A DNA stretch of 64,000 nt from positions 1,536,001-1,600,000 of the forward strand of contig CAWCKW010000012.1 of the NCBI GenBank assembly GCA_963796285.1, in the 5' to 3' direction. This DNA is from Nitrospirota bacterium (lineage in GTDB: Bacteria > Nitrospirota > UBA9217). This document shows, one piece after another, positions 5,639 to 54,451 of the stretch (within the stretch, counting starts at the first letter, position 1; each line of letters starts with the position of its first letter). The notes under the pieces are model-generated. The model made no database searches, was not told the origin of the DNA, and saw only the letters and a list, made by a program, of their open reading frames with translations. A program made the position numbers and the translations under genes.

Positions 5639-6175
5639 TCAGCCGTCCCTGTCCAGTTCAACATTCCAGTAGAGGTAATCGCGCCAGCTCAAAGGCGCAT
5701 TCTTGATCCCAAGCGTAAGCGTGACCACCGGCATCCACTTGGGTTTCACCGGCGGTCTGATCAGCCTCATTTTCGCCTCTCGCGGGGTCCTGCCTCCTTT
5801 TCTATTGTTGCAGGCGAGGCAGGCGGTCACGATGTTCTCCCAGGTGGCGTCACCGCCCTGCACTTGCGGGATGACGTGGTCGAAGGTAAGGTCCTCGGCA
5901 TGATATTTCACACCGCAATATTGACAGACGTATTTGTCGCGCTGGTAAATGTTGGCCCGGGAAAACCGCACTTCGCGGCTCGCTCGCCTGATCTTGACAA
6001 GCTTGAGCAAACGGAGGATCGAGGGAAGCCTGAAGGTGAGGGACACTCCCCGGATGTCCCGGTCGTAAGAGTCGATCACCTCGACCTTGCCCTGAGTGAG
6101 CAGGGTGATCGCCCTCTGCCAGGAAATGATCTTTAGCGGTTCAAATGTTGCGTTCAGAAGCAGCGTCCGTTCCAT
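5639..6175 (-). CDS. HNH endonuclease (stand-alone family)
   Basis: LLLNATFEPL N-terminus; RD.YVCQYCG, TFDHVIP, WENIVTACLACNNRK. Confidence 0.92.
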   Translation of the reverse strand: MERTLLLNATFEPLKIISWQRAITLLTQGKVEVIDSYDRDIRGVSLTFRLPSILRLLKLVKIRRASREVRFSRANIYQRDKYVCQYCGVKYHAEDLTFDHVIPQVQGGDATWENIVTACLACNNRKGGRTPREAKMRLIRPPVKPKWMPVVTLTLGIKNAPLSWRDYLYWNVELDRDG

Positions 6176-7283: not shown

Positions 7284-8417
7284 CTACTTCAGAATTTTGA
7301 GCGCCCATCCCCTGCCTACCGTGATCGCGCCCTGGGGACAGAATTCCTGACAGCAGAAACAGCGAATGCAGTCTCGATAGCGTATCTCCAGTACCCCGTC
7401 CCTGTTCTCGATCGCTCCCTGCGGGCAGTGGCCCTGGCAGATCCCGCACTGGATGCATGAGCGGTTGTTGATCACCGGTTTCGTGGTCAATGCGTCCTTG
7501 AGCACCAGCCTCGCCCATTCAGGGAGACGCCATTCGAGGTGTTCCTGCGGCGGCAATCGAAACTGTTTGACCGCCACGCTCGCGATGGATTCGCCAAAGA
7601 CCCTGATGCGGTCTAGCTGCGTTTCTCCATATCCTGCTGTCGCGGCCGCTCGAATGAGGGGAAGTTTTTCCAACGATACACCCAGCACACTGCTTGAGAC
7701 CACATCCACTGCCACCGGGTCCTGACCTGCGATCACCACACCGATCTGCCGCGGTTCGCCGCTGCCGGGACCGTTTCCTTCCATCCCGATGACCGCATCC
7801 ATGATCGTGAGCCGCGGCTTGAGCAGCGCGCAGAGCTCGTTCAGCATGGTCGCAAAAAGCTCGTGATTCACACCGGTATTGAAATGCCACTGGACCTTTC
7901 GCTTGCCGGGCACACACCCGAAGAGGTTCTTGACCGCCCCCGTGAGCGTCGTCATGCCGTGGGTCTTGAGCTTCGGAAGATTGATGATCGCATCCGCTTC
8001 GTATGCCGCACGGGCGATCTCGAAGCGCTGGAACCTGCCCTGGTTCCTGACCTGCACGACCTCGTCCAGTTCCACCAGCGTTGCGCCTTCCTCATTCACT
8101 ACGTCCAGGATACCGGCCTTCTCGCACACTTTCCGGAGATCTCCCATGCCGGGGCTGTCGCCCACCATCGGCTCGCCGCCCGCCTCGCGCACGAGCCTGA
8201 TCACGGCCCGCACGACCTCGGGGTGCGTGGTCACCGCCGCTTCCGGCGCCTTGCCCTTGAGCAGGTTCGGTTTGATGAGCACCCGCTCGCCGGGTTTCAC
8301 GAAGGCGTGCATCCCTCCCAGCAGGTCAACGGCCTGCTTGACCGCAGCAAAAATCCGCTCACGGTCATAATCGGCACAGCGCACAATGGAGACAGCTGAT
8401 GAAGTATGTTTAGTCAT
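7284..8417 (-). CDS. DUF362 iron-sulfur protein with C-terminal 2x[4Fe-4S] ferredoxin domain
   Basis: VLIKPNLL, TTHP, INLPKLKTH, KNLFG, MEGNGP; CIQCGICQGHCP and CIRCFCCQEFCP. Confidence 0.9.
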   Translation of the reverse strand: MTKHTSSAVSIVRCADYDRERIFAAVKQAVDLLGGMHAFVKPGERVLIKPNLLKGKAPEAAVTTHPEVVRAVIRLVREAGGEPMVGDSPGMGDLRKVCEKAGILDVVNEEGATLVELDEVVQVRNQGRFQRFEIARAAYEADAIINLPKLKTHGMTTLTGAVKNLFGCVPGKRKVQWHFNTGVNHELFATMLNELCALLKPRLTIMDAVIGMEGNGPGSGEPRQIGVVIAGQDPVAVDVVSSSVLGVSLEKLPLIRAAATAGYGETQLDRIRVFGESIASVAVKQFRLPPQEHLEWRLPEWARLVLKDALTTKPVINNRSCIQCGICQGHCPQGAIENRDGVLEIRYRDCIRCFCCQEFCPQGAITVGRGWALKILK

Positions 8418-8419
8418 AC

Positions 8420-8680
8420 ATTATTATAAAGCATCTCAAGAGAATAGCGACGGAGCATTTGCAGATTATTTCTGTTGATCCGAAGTCTGCTTCTTATCTC
8501 GCGACTTTTGTAAAAACAATGGCATTTGATCAGATCGGGAATCAGCCAGCGTATATTTGCGCTGGCAATCGAGAAAATCCCCGATCCATTTCCTGCAATC
8601 AGCATGGCGGGAAATGGGGATTATCGCTTTTTCATTACATCTTCGTATGCTGAAGAAATCTCGTTTGGAATTGGAAGTAT
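8420..8680 (-). pseudogene. N-terminal remnant of a long-form integron integrase
   Basis: Minus strand reads ILPIPNEISSAYEDVMKKR/IPISRHADCRKWIGDFLDCQRKYTLADSRSDQMPLFLQKSRDKKQTSDQQK*SANAPSLF (ATA at the start position, frameshift, stop). Resembles, from memory, the N-terminal extension of long IntI proteins; divergent from a cassette with attC. Confidence 0.6.
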
Positions 8681-8735
8681 AAATGGTTGACCTCGTCCGG
8701 ACTAATATCCGAAAATGCATGTTCGTCAGTTTTAA

Positions 8736-8806
8736 ACTGTAATGAAATTAGACATATACGTCAAGTAATATTTTTCCTTGACGGTAAAAAAGCAACCTGC
8801 TAAAGT
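8736..8806. promoter_or_regulatory. Back-to-back divergent sigma70 promoters (Pint-like and Pc-like)
   Basis: Minus: TTGACG(8764-8759)-17-TACAGT(8741-8736); plus: TTGACG(8778-8783)-17-TAAAGT(8801-8806) with an extended TG. Confidence 0.65.
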
Positions 8807-8844
8807 CGATTCCTGTAACTGCTCAATAACTATTTAGCCATTGA

Positions 8845-9063
8845 ATGAATATGAATAAACTACTCCGTTATATTATGGGTGGTATGGTCTTTCTTCTTGG
8901 ATGCTATCTAACCGTCCTTGAAATCGGGATCACATATTCTGAATGGCGAGTATTGCAATCACCAGGCAATGTGACCAGACAATTAGCAATGGTTGCCTTA
9001 TTCACTTTGATAGGGCTTTCAATAGCTTATGGAGGGATTCGAATAATAAGGAAGAAAGAGTAA
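8845..9063 (+). CDS. Small two-helix membrane protein, integron gene cassette
   Basis: AT-rich ORF with 2 hydrophobic segments; preceded by TTAGCC (8834-8839) and followed by attC. Confidence 0.7.
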   Translation: MNMNKLLRYIMGGMVFLLGCYLTVLEIGITYSEWRVLQSPGNVTRQLAMVALFTLIGLSIAYGGIRIIRKKE

Positions 9064-9113
9064 GACTCACAGATTAATTCAGTTGTCCGGAACAATAAGC
9101 AACAGAAGGACAA

Positions 9114-9173
9114 GGCTAACAGCCGGGTCGAGAACGACGCGCTAGAAACGCGCGTCTCACCCGTGCGTTAAAA
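9114..9173 (+). mobile_element. Integron attC recombination site (60 bp)
   Basis: R'' GGCTAAC, 5-bp spacer, L'' GGTCGAGA, inner CGCG stem, L' TCTCACC (one extrahelical base), 5-bp spacer, R' GTTAAAA; R'' is complementary to the cassette start TTAGCC. Confidence 0.8.
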
Positions 9174-9227
9174 AAGCACGATCGATATACGGAATATTTG
9201 CCCGCACAGCACCCGCACAGCATGTCC

Positions 9228-9256
9228 TTGACAAATGTCCTTCATTGTCTTACTCT
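9228..9256 (+). promoter_or_regulatory. Sigma70 promoter of the REC-LpxC gene
   Basis: TTGACA-17 bp-TACTCT; tandem CCCGCACAGCA x2 at 9201-9222 just upstream. Confidence 0.65.
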
Positions 9257-9298
9257 GTTAACTATTCAAATCGCAATGAACACCAGGCATAACCTTAT

Positions 9299-10627
9299 AT
9301 GAACCCTATTTGTATAGTAGACGACGTTTCTTCCATCACTTCCACGGTAGAGAGCATTCTGAAGGACGAGGGGTATCCCGCCATCTCATTTCCGGATGCG
9401 GAGAGCTTCTGGCAGAGGCTCGAGACAATGGAGCCCTCGCTCGTTCTGCTGGATATCTGGCTCCCCGGAATTGACGGCATGCAACTCCTGAAACGTCTGC
9501 ATTCCCGATTCCCCGAACTCCCCGTCATCATGATGAGCGGACATGCCGGTATCGATGCGGCGGTTGCTGCCATAAAGGCCGGCGCCTATGATTTTCTCGA
9601 AAAACCGCTGCAGTTGGAGGTCCTGCTCGACAAGGTGGCGTCTGCCCTTAAGCACCGGCCAGCCGTGAGCAGCGAGACCCTGCCCTCGGATACAAGGCTT
9701 GAGATCGTCAGTGCCGGCCATTCGGTGCCTCCCGGCGTAGTGGACGTGGTGGATTCCCCTGAACCTCAGCGTACCCTCAAAAGGAATGTGGTCCTGAACG
9801 GCATCGGGCTTCTGAGCGGCCGGAACACCGGTGTCATCCTGAGCCCTCTCGGGACCAACGAGGGGATCGTCTTTCAAACGCTTGACGGTCAGACCATCCG
9901 TGGACATATCACGTCCCTTGAGGATTTCTCCCAGACTGGCCCATCGAAGACCTTTTCCGCCAACTCCACCACCCTGGACAACGGCAGGCGGCGGGTGCGC
10001 ACCATTGAGCACCTGATGGCGGTGCTTTCCATGTACGGCATCACCAACGTGCTCGTAAAGGCCGACGAGGAGATACCGAACATAGACGGCTCTGCCAAGG
10101 ATTTTTGCGACCTCATAGAAGCGGCAGGGATAGAGGAACAGCCTGCTAAGACCAAGGTTGCCGTCATCCGCCAGAAGATCGGAGTGGGTAACGAGACAAA
10201 ACATGAAAAGCATCTTATTGCGGAGCCCTTTGAAGGGTTCGAAATATCGATGAGGGTTGACTACCCTTTACCTATCGGCGAACAGGTCCTCACGTTCAAT
10301 CCTGAACGAGGGTCTTTTGCAAAGGAAATAGCCCCGGCCCGCTCCTTCAACACCTTTGAAAATATCGAAATAGCCCAGAAGCTTGGAAAAGTTGGAGGCG
10401 GATATCTCCATTCACACATCATCATGTACGACGGCAAGGTCATCAACACGGAACTCCGTTATCCCGACGAATTCGTTCGCCACAAGATATTGGACCTGAT
10501 CGGAGACCTCTGCCTTCTCGGCCTTCACATCAGAGGACGCATTATTGCCAACATGACCTCTCACGGCTACAATCAGGTTTTGGTGCAACGCTTGTACCAG
10601 GCTGTTCAGAACAGCTCCAGTCGGTAG
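9299..10627 (+). CDS. lpxC: Receiver (REC) domain fused to UDP-3-O-acyl-N-acetylglucosamine deacetylase
   Basis: REC: IVDD, LLDIWLPGIDG, MMSGH, FLEKP; LpxC: QRTL..GIGL, TIEHL, EIP.IDGSA, IAPARSF, EFVRHKILDLIGDL, SHGYN; one open frame. Confidence 0.9.
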   Translation: MNPICIVDDVSSITSTVESILKDEGYPAISFPDAESFWQRLETMEPSLVLLDIWLPGIDGMQLLKRLHSRFPELPVIMMSGHAGIDAAVAAIKAGAYDFLEKPLQLEVLLDKVASALKHRPAVSSETLPSDTRLEIVSAGHSVPPGVVDVVDSPEPQRTLKRNVVLNGIGLLSGRNTGVILSPLGTNEGIVFQTLDGQTIRGHITSLEDFSQTGPSKTFSANSTTLDNGRRRVRTIEHLMAVLSMYGITNVLVKADEEIPNIDGSAKDFCDLIEAAGIEEQPAKTKVAVIRQKIGVGNETKHEKHLIAEPFEGFEISMRVDYPLPIGEQVLTFNPERGSFAKEIAPARSFNTFENIEIAQKLGKVGGGYLHSHIIMYDGKVINTELRYPDEFVRHKILDLIGDLCLLGLHIRGRIIANMTSHGYNQVLVQRLYQAVQNSSSR

Positions 10628-10712
10628 GTCGGGTAGATCATGGCGAAACCCGGCTGAATGCGATCAAATCGTTCTCTGGAACATGTAGGGTTTCACTTCG
10701 CTCTACCAGCCC
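10624..10712. repeat. Degenerate GTAG-type REP doublet
   Basis: GTAGGTCGGGTAGA..GCGAAACCC ... GGGTTTCACTTCGCTCTACC inverted arms between convergent genes. Confidence 0.5.
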
Positions 10713-10790
10713 GTAGGCTTAAAAGCTGCCTTATAACAAGTCATGCAAGGACCTGTGGCCGCTCAATTCTTCAAATAGGCGTACAAGCGC

Positions 10791-11582
10791 TTATCGCACC
10801 TTCCGACGTTCCACCTCTCGCAGTATCTCGGCCATCCGCTCATGCACTTTTCCATTGCTCGCGAGGATCTCGTCGTCGCGGATGCTGAATCTCGAACCGG
10901 AAAGATCCGATACCCTGCCTCCCGCCTCGGTCACGATGAGGCTCCCTGCCGCCACGTCCCAGGGTTTGAGCTTGAGTTCCCAAAAACCATCGAACCTTCC
11001 GGACGCAACATAGCAGAGGTCGAGAGCCGCGGAGCCGTCGCGACGCACTTCCTGCGAGGCCATAAGAAGATCGTGGAAGTAATCCAGGTTGTTCTTGTCA
11101 CTCACCTTGCGATCGTAGGGAAATCCCGTGGCAAGAAGACTTTTTATGAGCGTATCGATACCGGAGACCCTGATCTGCTTTCCGTTCAAGAACGCGCCTT
11201 TCCCCTTCTGTGCCGAGAACAGTTCATCCCTCATGGGGTCATACACGACGCCAAGAACGATCTCATCGTCTTGTTCAAGGGCGATGGAAACGGAAAAGCA
11301 GGGATATCCGTGCGCGTAGTTTGTGGTGCCGTCCAGGGGGTCGATGATCCAGGTAAATCCGGAACCGTTGCGGATCGTGGTCTCTTCTTCGGCAATGATC
11401 CCATGATCGGGAAAAGATGCGAGCAGCGTCTCGACCACCGCCCGTTCGGACCTCGTGTCCATCTCGGTGACCAGGTTGATGTCGCCTTTAAACGTGATCT
11501 CGCGAATGCCGTGAATATTGTCTCTTAAAATCCCGCCGGCCTTGAGTGCCGCTTCACGGGCAACGGATAAAAGGTCTTTCAT
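10791..11582 (-). CDS. suhB: Inositol monophosphatase family protein
   Basis: WIIDPLDGTTNY, GSAALDLCYVA.G, LKPWDVAAG. Confidence 0.93.
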   Translation of the reverse strand: MKDLLSVAREAALKAGGILRDNIHGIREITFKGDINLVTEMDTRSERAVVETLLASFPDHGIIAEEETTIRNGSGFTWIIDPLDGTTNYAHGYPCFSVSIALEQDDEIVLGVVYDPMRDELFSAQKGKGAFLNGKQIRVSGIDTLIKSLLATGFPYDRKVSDKNNLDYFHDLLMASQEVRRDGSAALDLCYVASGRFDGFWELKLKPWDVAAGSLIVTEAGGRVSDLSGSRFSIRDDEILASNGKVHERMAEILREVERRKVR

Positions 11583-12264: not shown

Positions 12265-13101
12265 CTAACGTATGCTCCATCGATGGGGCTTGTGGCAGGT
12301 CTTGCAGCTCTTGCCTGAAGCGTGGACCGGTTTAAGCGCCAGAACCTCTCGGGTATGGCAACGCAGGCAGTCGTCGTCGCTCGGCTTAATGCGGGCATGA
12401 GGCTTGTGGCACTCATAGCAGTTCAGCCGCGCCATCGGCACCCTGTCCGGGAAGGACGTCTTTGACGACTTCCGGTGGCAGGTCAGGCACCGGTCCCGGT
12501 CCGGGATAAAGGCTTCCCGTTGCTTTGGCGAGAAGGCATGGCATCTGAGACAGGAGATATTCTCCATTCCCACTCCGTGAATTTCCCAATTCTTGTGACA
12601 GCGAAGACAGGCGTCCTTGTCGGGCCTGAAGGAATGCACCGTCCGGCTGTGACAATCCTTGCAAGCGAGCTTTTCCATAAAGACGTGCCGCGCATGACCC
12701 GTTGACTTATTCACGGTCAGTGACCCCTGGGCAGCCTCATCCCAGTGGCACTTCGTGCAGGTCTTCCACGGGGTCTCGTTCCCGTGCGGTTCGGGCGTTT
12801 TCCGGCCCGGTGAAAAAATGAATTTGACCAGCAACCCGTTCTGCTCCATCATGCCGAGCTGGTGGCATCCCTGGCATACGATATTCCTGTGGCCGGAGAG
12901 CTTCCATGCCGTGTACGCCTCTTCCATGAGATGGCAGCTGTTGCAGAACTCGGGATCTTTTTGGATATAGTTGTAGTAGCGGACCGCCAGCACGATACCC
13001 AGGACCGAAATGATGAACATGAGGGAAACAATGATGACCTTGTCCCGCGGGCTGAGACCCTGTTCGAGCTTGTCGATTATTTTGGAGATTAGTTTATACA
13101 T
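12265..13101 (-). CDS. Membrane-anchored decaheme cytochrome c (NapC/NirT-like N-terminus)
   Basis: One N-terminal TM helix and 10 CxxCH motifs (CNSCH, CQGCH, CTKCH, CKDCH, CLRCH x3, CLTCH, CYECH, CKTCH); PEFCNSCH.M..AY..W..S.H pattern. Confidence 0.88.
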   Translation of the reverse strand: MYKLISKIIDKLEQGLSPRDKVIIVSLMFIISVLGIVLAVRYYNYIQKDPEFCNSCHLMEEAYTAWKLSGHRNIVCQGCHQLGMMEQNGLLVKFIFSPGRKTPEPHGNETPWKTCTKCHWDEAAQGSLTVNKSTGHARHVFMEKLACKDCHSRTVHSFRPDKDACLRCHKNWEIHGVGMENISCLRCHAFSPKQREAFIPDRDRCLTCHRKSSKTSFPDRVPMARLNCYECHKPHARIKPSDDDCLRCHTREVLALKPVHASGKSCKTCHKPHRWSIR

Positions 13102-13180
13102 GGTAAGATCAGGTTTTAGGATCCGGAGGCCCGACTTCACATCGGTTACACGTGATATGTTCCTAGTTCCCGGCTCCTGA

Positions 13181-14197
13181 CTACTGTATTAAGCGCTCTG
13201 CGATCTGCACGGCGTTCAGCGCCGCGCCCTTGCGCAGGTTGTCGGACACGATCCACATATTGATGCCATTCGGGATCGACTCGTCTTCCCTGATCCTGCC
13301 CACGTAGACCTCGTCCTTGCCCGCCACATCGATCGCAAGCGGATAGAGGTTTCTCTTCGGATCATCGTACACGATAATGCCCGGTGCAGCCGAAAGGATG
13401 GCCCGTGCTTCGTTGGCCGATATGTTCTTCTCCGTCTCGATGTTCACGGACTCGGAGTGGCAGCGGAACACCGGTACGCGGACCGTTGTGGCGGTCACGC
13501 GGATGGAATCGTCTCCCATGATCTTCCTCGTCTCGTTCACCATCTTCATCTCTTCCTTGGTGTAGCCGTTGTCGAGGAAGGCATCGATATGCGGGAGACA
13601 ATTGAACGCGATCTGGTGCGGATAGACCTTCGTTTCAATATCCCTGAAGTTCAGGAGCGCGACGGTCTGTCCCGCCAGCTCATCTATGGCATCCTTGCCC
13701 GTTCCGGAAACAGACTGAAAGGTCGTGACCACGATGCGCTTGATCTTCACAGCGTCATGGATCGGTTTCAGCACCATGACCATGCCCGATGGTGGAGCAG
13801 TTCGGGTTGGCAATGATGCCCGCTGTGCTTCGCGATCGCATGGGCGTTCACCTCCGGCACCACAAGCGGCACCATCGGTTCCATGCGGAAGGCGCTCGAG
13901 TTGTCAATGACCACGGCGCCGGACTTCACCGCTGCCGGGGCGAACTCTATGCTGCGTTCGGCACCTGCCGAAAAGAGCGCGATGTCCACGTCCTTGAACG
14001 CGTCCTTGGTCAACTTCCGGACAACCAGCTTCTTGCCGTTAAACTCGACCCTCTCGCCCTCGGAACGCTCCGACGCAAGCGGGATCAGCTCGGACACCGG
14101 GAAATTCGCGCTCCTCGAGGATTTCGATCATTTCCCTGCCCACAGCGCCGGTGGCGCCGACAACGGCAACTACATATTTAGTTTTTTTCTTGAGCAT
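13181..14197 (-). CDS. asd: Aspartate-semialdehyde dehydrogenase, Asd-B type (frameshifted)
   Basis: VAVVGATGAVG, VIDNSSAFRM, ATTVRVPVF, DNLRKGAALNAVQIAE spread over three frames. Confidence 0.9.
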
Positions 14198-14236
14198 GAG
14201 TTTAAAGAAAATTTAAAACCTTTCACGTAAGGAGTC

Positions 14237-17499: not shown

Positions 17500-17622
17500 T
17501 TAAACCCTCCTAAGACTTATCACTGATGTACACGGATATAGATCGAAGCTTACGATTCATCGTGTCTATCTCGTCCATTCGTGTCATTCGTGTCTCTGTT
17601 TGTGTCTCCGTGGTGAAAATTA

Positions 17623-18886
17623 TTACTTCAGTTCTTCCGGCCTTCCGATCCTGCCGAGCACAGCCGATGCGGCCGCGATCGCCGGGATTGGAGAGATAGA
17701 CCTCGCTCTTGGGGTGCCCCATCCTGCCGACAAAGTTCCGGTTCGTCGTGGCAATGGCGCGCTCACCGGCGGCAAGGATGCCCATATGGCCGCCCAGACA
17801 GGGGCCGCAGGTCGGCGTGCTGAAGGCCGCGCCGGCATCGATGAAGATGTCCACGAGGCCTTCTTTAATGCACTGTTTATAGATCGCCTGCGTGGCCGGG
17901 ATCACGATCATGCGGACATAGGGATGCACTTTGTGGCCCTTGATGACCCTGGCCGCCTCACGCATGTCCTCGATCCTGTCCGTTCGTACAGGAACCGACA
18001 ACGGACTGGTCGATATTGATGGCCGCAAGCTGGCTTACCGGCTTCACGTTCTCGGGAAGATGCGGGCAGGCGATCTGCGGCTCCATGCCGGTCAGATCGT
18101 ACTCGCGCACATCCACATAGTTCGCCTTCTTGTCGCTCTTGATAGAACTTATATTTCCGCTGGGCGCGCTTCGCAACATACTTCTCGGTGATCTCATCGG
18201 GCTCGATGATGCCGTTCTTGCCGCCGGCCTCGATGGCCATATTGCAGATCGTCAAACGACCGTACATCGGGAGTTTTTTGATCACCTCGCCGGTAAACTC
18301 CATGGCACGGTACAGGGCTCCGTCCACACCGATATCGCCGATGGTGCGGAGAATGATGTCCTTGCCGCCGACCCACTTGCCGAGCTTGCCCTTGTAGATG
18401 AACTTCATGCTCTCCGGCACCTTGAACCAGGCCTCACCCGTGATCATGGCAGCGGCGACATCGGTGCTGCCCACGCCGGTCGAGAACGCGCCCAGCCCGC
18501 CGTAGGTGCAGGTGTGGCTGTCAGCGCCGATCACCACGTCGCCGGGCACCACGATCCCCTGCTCCGGAAGGAGCGCATGCTCGATGCCCATCCTGCCGAC
18601 CTCGAAATACAGGGAGAGGTCATGCTCCCGCGAGAATTGGCGGAGCAGGTTGCACTGTTCAGCCGAGGCGATGTCCTTGTTCGGCGCAAAGTGGTCGGGA
18701 ATGAGCGCGATCCGCTCGGGATCGAACACCTTTTTCGCCCCCGTCGCGCGAAACTCCTTGATCGAGATCGGGCGCCGTGATATCGTTCGCGAGCACGAGA
18801 TCGAGCTTCGCGTTGATCAGTTCGCCGGGCTTCACTTCTTTTTTGCCGCAGTGCGCGGCCAGTATCTTTTCAGTAATGGTCATCAT
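17623..18886 (-). CDS. leuC: 3-isopropylmalate dehydratase large subunit (several frameshifts)
   Basis: [43 protein letters not shown]. Confidence 0.93.
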
Positions 18887-18920: not shown

Positions 18921-20451
<1,531 letters not shown>

Positions 20452-54079: not shown

Positions 54080-54451
54080 TCAGGCGGACGGTGTGTCGAG
54101 GGCCTTTCTGACCGCCTTCTTCATCTCGTCGTGCATCAGGGGCTTGATGATGAAATCGCAGGCCCCGGCCTTAATGGAATCCACGGCCGTGGTCAGGGAA
54201 GCATAGGCCGTGATGACCATCACTTTTTGCGCGGGGTTCTTCTTGCGGTATTTCGTCAGGAGTTCGATGCCGCTGATGCCGGGAAGGATGATGTCGGTGA
54301 TAATGAGGTCGTAGGACCTGTCTTCGAGGAATATGAACGCCGCTTCGGCGCTGTCAGCGCTGTCCACCTCGTAGCCGTCGCGCAGGAACACCCTCTTCAG
54401 GGATTCGCAGAGCGTGTCTTCGTCCTCAATGATGAGCAGTCGTTCAGCCAT
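54080..54451 (-). CDS. Single-domain response regulator
   Basis: IIEDE, IITDIILPGISG, ITAY, IIKP. Confidence 0.9.
   Translation of the reverse strand: MAERLLIIEDEDTLCESLKRVFLRDGYEVDSADSAEAAFIFLEDRSYDLIITDIILPGISGIELLTKYRKKNPAQKVMVITAYASLTTAVDSIKAGACDFIIKPLMHDEMKKAVRKALDTPSA

Follow-up and report, generated by a model that had tools for sequence, protein, structure and literature searches.

A receiver domain fused to LpxC in a Nitrospirota family: a putative response regulator with a lipid A enzyme as output domain

Can a two-component signal act directly on LpxC, the enzyme of the commitment step in lipid A biosynthesis? The question is raised by a gene at positions 9299..10627 (+) of a 64,000-nucleotide stretch of a Nitrospirota genome (GenBank assembly GCA_963796285.1, contig CAWCKW010000012.1, positions 1,536,001 to 1,600,000; the whole stretch is called the window here), which encodes a receiver domain (REC) followed by LpxC (UDP-3-O-acyl-GlcNAc deacetylase) in one reading frame. 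Lipopolysaccharide synthesis has its control point at LpxC, which is also a major target for antibiotics. Published modes of LpxC control act by transcription, by partner proteins or by proteolysis (FtsH/LapB/YejM); the main text of a 2025 review (PMC12444477) contains neither "receiver" nor "response regulator" nor "fusion". No description of a receiver–LpxC protein was found in the literature covered, that is, outside subscription-only papers and supplements. A receiver on the enzyme would represent a fourth, post-translational mode that links outer-membrane growth to a sensor kinase. On the basis of sequence comparison we consider it moderately probable that the protein is a real response regulator with a working LpxC as output domain and that phosphorylation of its aspartate D52 changes LpxC output. 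That one intact gene joins the two domains and is the sole lpxC of many relatives suggests that the signal of a kinase acts directly on the enzyme.

Architecture and integrity of the fused gene

A first-pass annotation, made from the letters of the window alone, had described a continuous frame of 442 amino acids (aa) composed of a receiver, a linker and LpxC. The open frame lies exactly there and comprises the following parts (pLDDT, predicted local distance difference test).

9299..10627 (+): REC–LpxC gene, a single open frame of 442 aa plus stop codon
9308..9637 (+): receiver of NtrX/NtrC type, aa 4-113, Pfam PF00072, E 6.8e-28
9452-9454 (+): codon of the phospho-acceptor D52
9653..9766 (+): interdomain linker, aa 119-156 (38 aa), AlphaFold pLDDT <50 at aa 120-134
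9767..10597 (+): LpxC domain, aa 157-433, Pfam PF03331, profile positions 1-267 of 268, E 2e-71
10007-10012, 10481-10495 and 10562-10564 (+): active-site codons of LpxC for E237/H238, H395-D399 and H422, respectively

The receiver scores 97.5 bits against PF00072 (cut-off 30.2) and shows the complete signature that had been annotated, i.e. the pair D8 and D9, D52 within LLDIW, S80 within MMSGH and K102-P103, together with F99. If the receiver portion is taken alone, its top NCBIfam matches are NtrX, FixJ and NtrC, and among solved structures the Brucella NtrX receiver (entries 4d6x and 5m7n) comes closest. The linker was present as well, at 38 aa slightly longer than the approximately 35 aa first given.

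The annotation of a full LpxC proved equally correct. The domain reaches 241.1 bits with PF03331 (cut-off 27), passes the lpxC equivalog TIGR00325 (204.4 bits, cut-off 187.25) and carries the motifs TIEH (E237/H238), RHKILDLIGD (H395/K396/D399/D403) and SH (H422). Zinc-binding, catalytic and oxyanion roles are assigned here by the residue numbering of Pseudomonas aeruginosa LpxC; in these terms the zinc-ligand and catalytic positions are filled (H238, H395, D399, E237, H422), while the position of the oxyanion threonine is occupied by serine (S349), a replacement shared with 5 of 48 rows of the fused clade described below. A second departure from canonical LpxC is S421 where glycine is usual. 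In a search of solved structures P. aeruginosa LpxC aligns to this part with E 5e-40. The AlphaFold model (mean pLDDT 84.1, built on 43 aligned sequences) contains the two-subdomain LpxC fold as a predicted structure, and Foldseek superimposes it on LpxC from P. aeruginosa, Escherichia coli and Aquifex aeolicus with target template modelling (TM) scores of 0.81-0.93 and a root mean square deviation of ~2 A. Thus the full domain, the fold and the zinc and catalytic residues are shared with stand-alone LpxC. What sets the fusion apart from those enzymes is the receiver with linker at its N-terminus, its place in a clade of its own among LpxC domains and the lack of a C-terminal tail, since its LpxC domain stops a few residues before the protein end.

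Single-base insertions or deletions (indels) do split other genes in this genome (asd, leuC, leuA and an NtrY-like kinase gene), so an assembly or gene-calling artefact that joined a response-regulator gene to lpxC had to be considered. We regard it as practically impossible. The same single open reading frame (ORF) occurs at full length in 34 independent genomes from a phylum sample of 301, with contig-cut or split copies in 8 further ones, and all 42 fusion-bearing genomes fall in the window's own family (64 genomes). Among the closest database clusters listed, 120 of 120 carry both PF03331 and PF00072 (84-96% identity, 439-468 aa). The DNA alignment with the closest genome (G212) shows zero indels from 9211 to 10643, the first one lying beyond the stop codon. 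Public metagenome contigs from peat, sediment and soil contain no inserted or deleted letters over 9100-10800; one of 875 nt spans 9620-10494 without a gap and thereby crosses the junction, covering the receiver end, the linker and most of LpxC. The best-matching metagenome sample is perhaps the source sample, which makes the support from public contigs weaker than that from comparison. Cluster survey, family genomes, public contigs and the G212 alignment together refute the artefact.

In three genomes the fusion is read as two pieces (G173:C14, G239:C6 and G227:C1). The break is located in the linker at ~aa 124-130 in G239 and G227 and at ~aa 276-280, with a TAG codon, in G173. These copies may represent sequencing indels or a true separation into REC and LpxC genes.

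Copy number and reciprocal loss of lpxC genes

The genome of the window also contains a canonical lpxC (contig C3, 318-aa frame), which reaches 358 bits in a search of the genome with the LpxC profile versus 243 bits for the fusion. Therefore the fusion is a paralogue and one of two routes, not the sole commitment step. This second gene qualifies the original suggestion that the lipid A commitment step is possibly under phosphorelay control. Compared with canonical LpxC proteins of its phylum, the fusion shows 37-41% identity.

A census over the 64 family genomes combined searches with the LpxC profile, the fusion protein and the canonical protein. The genomes with G numbers are metagenome assemblies, and family and genus denote groups assigned by code. 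Both genes were found in 23 of 64 genomes, the fusion only in 19, the canonical gene only in 18, and neither was detected in 4, absence from a metagenome-assembled genome (MAG) being no proof of gene absence. Eight fusion-only genomes are 97-100% complete (G042, G131, G075, G033, G057, G091, G115, G119). Among 32 high-quality genomes 11 are without the canonical gene and 10 of these 11 possess the fusion. When the canonical protein was used as query in five genomes of 98-100% completeness, the fused gene was the sole match in all five (37-38% identity), and LpxB was found in four of them. The canonical locus itself was inspected in two genomes: in the fusion-only G131 (1.62-Mb contig) and G033, which belong to the same genus, homology to it ends after a TPR gene (84%), and on contiguous DNA the syntenic place of canonical lpxC holds another gene, with nothing LpxC-like found by tblastn over 8 kb. 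G005, a carrier of both genes, retains synteny with the genome of the window for the TPR gene and lpxC. The pattern extends beyond the family: of five genomes tested from other lineages, four (chromosomes of a Binatia and a Nitrospinales member, a Thermodesulfovibrionia MAG and one unclassified MAG) gave no LpxC match besides the fused gene, and the Desulfopila isolate has both. This census of both, either or neither gene is new, and so is the observation that the canonical gene has disappeared from its syntenic place.

Loss of either copy in different genera is just what redundancy predicts. As many genomes keep only one gene of the two, the fusion can apparently stand in for canonical LpxC, and as it is the sole LpxC in many of them, it probably catalyzes the same reaction as the stand-alone enzyme. 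Reciprocal loss appears to be the strongest available sign that the fusion carries out the LpxC reaction in cells, where it very probably works as LpxC.

The divergent features of the LpxC part could also indicate a different substrate, for instance a variant acyl chain or a GlcNAc3N-based precursor, with the fusion complementing canonical LpxC. S349 in place of threonine, N351/T352 versus G/F at the entrance of the substrate passage, a 10-aa insert in the first sub-domain and the lowest PF03331 score among the fused forms scanned (241 of 241-284 bits) would fit such a function. Nevertheless, the zinc, catalytic and other canonical-conserved positions are all kept, 19 of 64 family genomes have the subtype as their sole LpxC and otherwise retain LpxB, and reciprocal loss favours interchangeability with the canonical gene. 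A change of substrate is thus very unlikely, and a genuine LpxC activity under receiver control is retained as the preferred reading.

NtrX ancestry, conservation and the case for phospho-control

The search was extended to 1.84 billion cluster representatives and revealed many more distant proteins with LpxC after a receiver. This means that the architecture is widespread, and the early suspicion that databases already hold such fusions was correct; they are annotated there simply as LpxC. A Pfam scan of 51 distant fusions distinguishes a long form with REC, a sigma-54-type AAA+ domain, AAA lid, sometimes HTH_8, and LpxC (650-736 aa), an intermediate form with REC, HTH_8 and LpxC (491 aa) and a short form with REC and LpxC (412-461 aa). 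Named records come from Nitrospinota, Binatia, Entotheonellia and Nitrospirota, from Thermodesulfobacteriota (Syntrophobacter, Syntrophorhabdus, Desulfomonile, Desulfocapsaceae, Desulfopila) and from Acidobacteriota (Thermoanaerobaculia, Holophagae, Terriglobia), single MAGs with other phylum labels being possibly mis-binned.

A tree was computed for 103 LpxC domains. All fused forms fall in one group of 48 rows, which also takes in four short, probably truncated proteins, and a branch with 97% support in the Shimodaira–Hasegawa-like approximate likelihood ratio test divides this group from the other 55 rows, which are canonical or LpxC-FabZ. The tree is the result of a quick search, and its support stars have to be taken with some caution. 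Within the fused group long and short forms intermingle, the sister of one REC-HTH_8-LpxC protein being a long form (branch lengths 0.14 and 0.13); therefore the AAA+ module was apparently lost more than once. At the 39 canonical columns conserved to at least 90%, the majority residue of the fused clade is identical in all 39 (frequency at least 0.79). Four positions are clade-specific, namely G178, Y246, K254 and C270, and all four residues are present in the window protein, which with its LpxC inside this clade and its NtrX-type receiver is a regular member. Natural LpxC fusions of another kind are known as LpxC-FabZ (NF009667), five of which occur among the representatives; unlike the proteins described here they have a C-terminal dehydratase partner and no signalling domain, and their LpxC lies on the canonical side of the tree.

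Among 19 long forms Walker A was recognized in 16, and a GAFTGA loop or the DE pair of Walker B in none by pattern search, in agreement with the alignment. The long forms thus seem to resemble NtrX rather than sigma-54 activators. They share the layout of REC, GAFTGA-less AAA+ and HTH_8 with the NtrY/NtrX systems of Brucella, Rhodobacter sphaeroides and Caulobacter crescentus, and the receiver of the fusion matches NtrX best. In the window protein no AAA+ or HTH_8 domain was detected with Pfam and NCBIfam, the corresponding columns are gaps in the alignment with long forms, and the NtrX equivalog NF051870 gives 104.8 bits (cut-off 600) with the receiver portion alone matching. Since only the receiver is left while longer relatives keep AAA+ and HTH_8, the window protein appears to descend from NtrX-like ancestors without being an NtrX family member, and its linker is likely a remnant of the AAA+/HTH_8 region. 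In contrast with NtrY/NtrX its output is an enzyme, it has no DNA-binding domain and the kinase is not adjacent.

A connection between such regulators and lpxC has been reported at the level of transcription. In R. sphaeroides and C. crescentus lpxC is repressed by NtrYX at this level (PMC12444477, PMC7240162). Lemmer et al. 2020 (PMC7240162) report that the lpxC transcript of a strain without NtrYX is 8.8-fold up and that an NtrX site is missing upstream. In another study lpxC is the single mapped target of the NtrC-type regulator DVU2934 of Desulfovibrio vulgaris (Rajeev et al. 2011, PMC3333781). The DVU2931-DVU2934 system resembles the proposed function of the fusion as two-component control of lpxC but is transcriptional and built from separate proteins.

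Both domains of the fusion are intact and, judged from substitution rates, under purifying selection. Fusion orthologues across the genera of the family are 78-96% identical to the window protein, whereas canonical LpxC proteins of the same genomes are 63-81% identical; for individual genomes the values for fusion versus canonical are 85% vs 75% (G005), 85% vs 66% (G200) and 86% vs 65% (G103). It follows as a further new observation that the fusion seems to evolve slower than canonical LpxC. Mean family identity is 85% in REC, 69% in the linker and 88% in LpxC, and the pairwise ratio of non-synonymous to synonymous substitution rates (dN/dS) amounts to 0.08-0.30, 0.2-0.67 and 0.05-0.18, respectively. 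Every phospho-site and catalytic residue is retained in 22 of 22 family orthologues, 10 of which originate from fusion-only genomes. Across 34 clade representatives F99 is kept in 28, S80 in 32 and D8, D9, D52, K102 and P103 in 33-34.

These data bear on the possibility that the protein is a constitutive LpxC and the receiver an NtrX leftover, serving folding, dimerization or solubility, with phosphorylation being irrelevant. The repeated loss of AAA+ and HTH would then be the decay of ancestral parts, and both the absence of a nearby kinase at 15 of 15 family loci examined and the ability of the fusion to be the sole, presumably essential, LpxC would agree with it. A vestigial receiver should lose its phospho-site, however, and the opposite is found in orthologues and clade representatives; the dN/dS of REC lies below that of the linker, and in other lineages the fusion stands directly behind an NtrY-type kinase gene. 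At 14 of 35 loci examined in those lineages a same-strand ORF of at least 730 aa ends just upstream of the fusion. Seven of these ORFs were scanned: one encodes a glycoside hydrolase and the other six encode HAMP-PAS-HisKA-HATPase_c kinases, with an NtrY_N match in five. A merely structural receiver is therefore improbable in our view, and phospho-control through D52 remains the preferred reading.

Which kinase would act on the fusion in the family of the window? A candidate is encoded ~120 kb away at C12:1422898-1425051 (-) (locus L114, 6898-9051). This NtrY-like kinase (NtrY_N, HAMP, PAS, HisKA, HATPase_c) has no adjacent regulator. Its gene falls into three ORFs here, whereas most relatives have it intact (725-841 aa). 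Genes for a LysM protein, a rhodanese and Ogg adjoin it; at least 4 of 7 family genomes viewed show them in identical order, and the orphan context is the same with and without fusion in the genome. A second orphan is a 461-aa NtrC-type sigma-54 activator at C12:1647563-1648948 (-) (locus L125, 4564-5949) with intact GSFTGA and Walker B and no adjacent kinase, the receiver of which is the closest paralogue of the receiver of the fusion (39%). The class-V aminotransferase gene adjoining this regulator is also split in two ORFs. Pairing of kinase and receiver by orthology was attempted and fails as a clean argument, because the 461-aa orphan matches the receiver of the kinase-adjacent L051 fusion better than the window protein does. 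By this comparison the 461-aa activator would suit the NtrY-like kinase as a candidate partner at least as well as the fusion does. That the family-wide orphan kinase is the partner of the fusion, with a branched pathway, can be offered as a hypothesis only.

Several observations weigh against direct phospho-control. No kinase gene lies next to the fusion in the window, and none is conserved next to it at 15 family loci. The N-terminal part of the NtrY-like kinase is found in 60 of 64 family genomes whether the fusion is present or not, so its co-occurrence with the fusion is uninformative. The receiver of the L051 fusion is 49% identical to that of the 461-aa regulator versus 43% to that of the window protein. 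Near the substrate passage ARSFNTF is found instead of ARTFGF, and the 10-aa insert at ~218-227 overlaps a block of low pLDDT in the AlphaFold model (residues 211-220). This model, with a predicted TM score (pTM) of just 0.70 and a disordered linker, offers no interface information. Finally, an essential sole LpxC cannot be fully off, and control may be graded or may act outside catalysis.

For the preferred reading the following scheme can be drawn. An NtrX-like regulator (REC, degenerate AAA+, HTH_8) would have gained LpxC at its C-terminus, and AAA+ and HTH would later have been lost in this lineage, leaving REC, linker and LpxC. A histidine kinase would phosphorylate D52 and LpxC output would be altered, most likely in a CheB-like manner, with the receiver either packed against the catalytic domain or detached from it; the four clade-specific surface positions (G178, Y246, K254, C270) are candidate domain contacts. 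Lipid A flux could then follow an envelope or redox signal while transcription and proteolysis stay unchanged. As it can be the only LpxC of a genome, the protein would not be fully inactive in its unphosphorylated form unless the kinase is always on. Flexible linkage of a receiver to a catalytic domain is familiar from CheB, PleD/WspR (REC-GGDEF) and RpfG (REC-HD-GYP). The layout of receiver, linker and enzyme in CheB-type regulators may serve by analogy as a working model for phospho-gating, but the output of the fusion is a lipid A biosynthetic enzyme and not a protein of signalling or chemotaxis. The proposal that the flux into lipopolysaccharide is switched by aspartate phosphorylation has thus gained from architecture, gap-free junction, kept residues and the role of the fusion as sole LpxC elsewhere, and is limited by the canonical lpxC in the same genome.

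The site of action might also differ from catalysis. Phosphorylation could govern turnover, membrane or partner association or oligomerization, so that the receiver replaces the FtsH/LapB degron logic of E. coli. Receivers of the NtrC/NtrX type usually signal through a change in oligomeric state, and the fusion has no tail beyond its LpxC domain. LpxC control known elsewhere runs via stability or partner proteins (PMC12444477). Against this, the sequence has no sign of a protease adaptor or membrane anchor, and no conserved neighbour could be the partner. We consider this alternative unlikely, and altered LpxC output upon phosphorylation of D52 is still preferred.

Promoter, genomic context and transfer between phyla

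That the gene has its own promoter had been claimed from the letters alone and gained support from comparison. The elements are located as follows.

9213..9227 (+): conserved block CCGCACAGCATGTCC, directly 5' of the -35 element, aligned in most promoter-keeping family loci
9228-9233 and 9251-9256 (+): candidate promoter of sigma-70 type, TTGACA, 17-nt spacer, TACTCT

This upstream stretch, about 85 nt long and lying before the start codon, is kept in ~11 of 16 family loci despite otherwise unrelated flanks, and the block may represent an UP element or a regulator site. A simple sigma-70 consensus scan did not call a promoter at 9228..9256 because the -10 element matches in just 3 of 6 positions. 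DNA homology with G212 begins at 9211, the upstream edge of the promoter. From the upstream conservation and this starting point it follows that the fusion gene travels with its own promoter. In an Rfam scan of 8400-10900 (E up to 1) no match was obtained. The contigs of a public RNA run (X20) are 90-95% alike over parts of the LpxC region, derive from relatives and give no evidence of transcription of this gene.

The absence of an adjacent kinase and of lpx or division genes nearby was likewise confirmed: the genome has 45 histidine-kinase-like matches, none of them inside the 64-kb window, and the scan of 26 neighbouring ORFs gave no kinase, lpx gene or division gene. Only G212 is syntenic; the other 14 of 15 family loci lack any neighbour found in the window. 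In these non-syntenic loci Pfam recognized no recurring family among 108 flanking ORFs, and single HATPase_c, PAS, HAMP-GGDEF and HAMP-HD proteins were the only ones of this kind. The fusion is therefore a self-contained orphan gene with its own promoter in variable contexts in this Nitrospirota family, an arrangement that is new.

Outside this family close relatives are rare. The cultured isolate Desulfopila sp. IMCC35006 has a protein with 79% identity to the window protein over 436 aa, a Desulfocapsaceae MAG one with 75% and a Myxococcota-labelled MAG one with 78%, while all other loci in the searched genome contigs are at most 50% identical. The canonical LpxC proteins of this genome and of Desulfopila share 43%. 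Synonymous divergence of the fusion from the Desulfopila gene is 0.66-0.89 as compared with 0.6-1.6 for ordinary within-genus genes, all these being noisy NG86 estimates over short stretches. A tree computed with care unites the three foreign sequences (93/100), inside or beside the radiation of the family; a 98/97 branch, 0.95 in length, sets family and foreign group apart from the remaining short forms. The foreign group adjoins two family members without starred support (91/94 and 89/69), and the backbone of the family is a polytomy.

Because the fusion is 75-79% identical in Desulfopila and Desulfocapsaceae versus 43% for canonical LpxC, this REC-LpxC subtype has, on the evidence of sequence identity, crossed phylum boundaries. 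Such an inter-phylum transfer, which involves a cultured isolate, is new. Since these copies are nearly as similar as those within the family, the fusion appears to act as a self-contained, horizontally exchanged lpxC module. Together with reciprocal loss this would mean that a regulated homologue from its own enzyme family took the place of an essential envelope gene. Tentatively, and with somewhat less than even confidence, we propose that a promoter-carrying receiver–LpxC module is interchangeable with canonical lpxC, has replaced it repeatedly and has moved between Nitrospirota and Thermodesulfobacteriota of the Desulfobulbales type. If true, an essential envelope enzyme would exist here in a mobile form that is gated by a signal. 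As Desulfopila sp. IMCC35006 is cultured and has a canonical copy besides the orthologue, the question of phospho-control is directly testable there.

The copies from Desulfopila (L090/L130), the Myxococcota-labelled MAG (L091) and the Desulfocapsaceae MAG (L083) have a conserved block of ~25 nt of their own just upstream of the start codon, which differs from the Nitrospirota promoter. In Desulfopila a gene for a PilZ-domain protein lies directly upstream.

The remaining neighbours in the window, all on the (-) strand, comprise a multihaem c-type cytochrome with NapC/NirT-like N-terminus (12265-13140), a DUF362 plus 4Fe-4S dicluster protein (7284-8417) and an HNH endonuclease (5639-6175), none of which is associated with the fusion elsewhere. 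Only an ORF for a 72-aa membrane protein separates the fusion from the DUF362/4Fe-4S gene in the window, whereas ~5.9 kb of other DNA occupy this place in G212 (locus L015). A stand-alone receiver ORF at 54095-54439 (-) (125-aa frame) is 32% identical to the receiver of the fusion. In the same window asd (13181-14230) encodes 210 aa compared with a 337-aa ORF in G212, with 1-nt differences at 13783, 13821 and 14098; leuC is found in two overlapping ORFs (17510-18028 and 17908-18729) and leuA also in two (18921-19757 and 19411-20451). The split asd, leuC and leuA are probably assembly errors and not pseudogenes.

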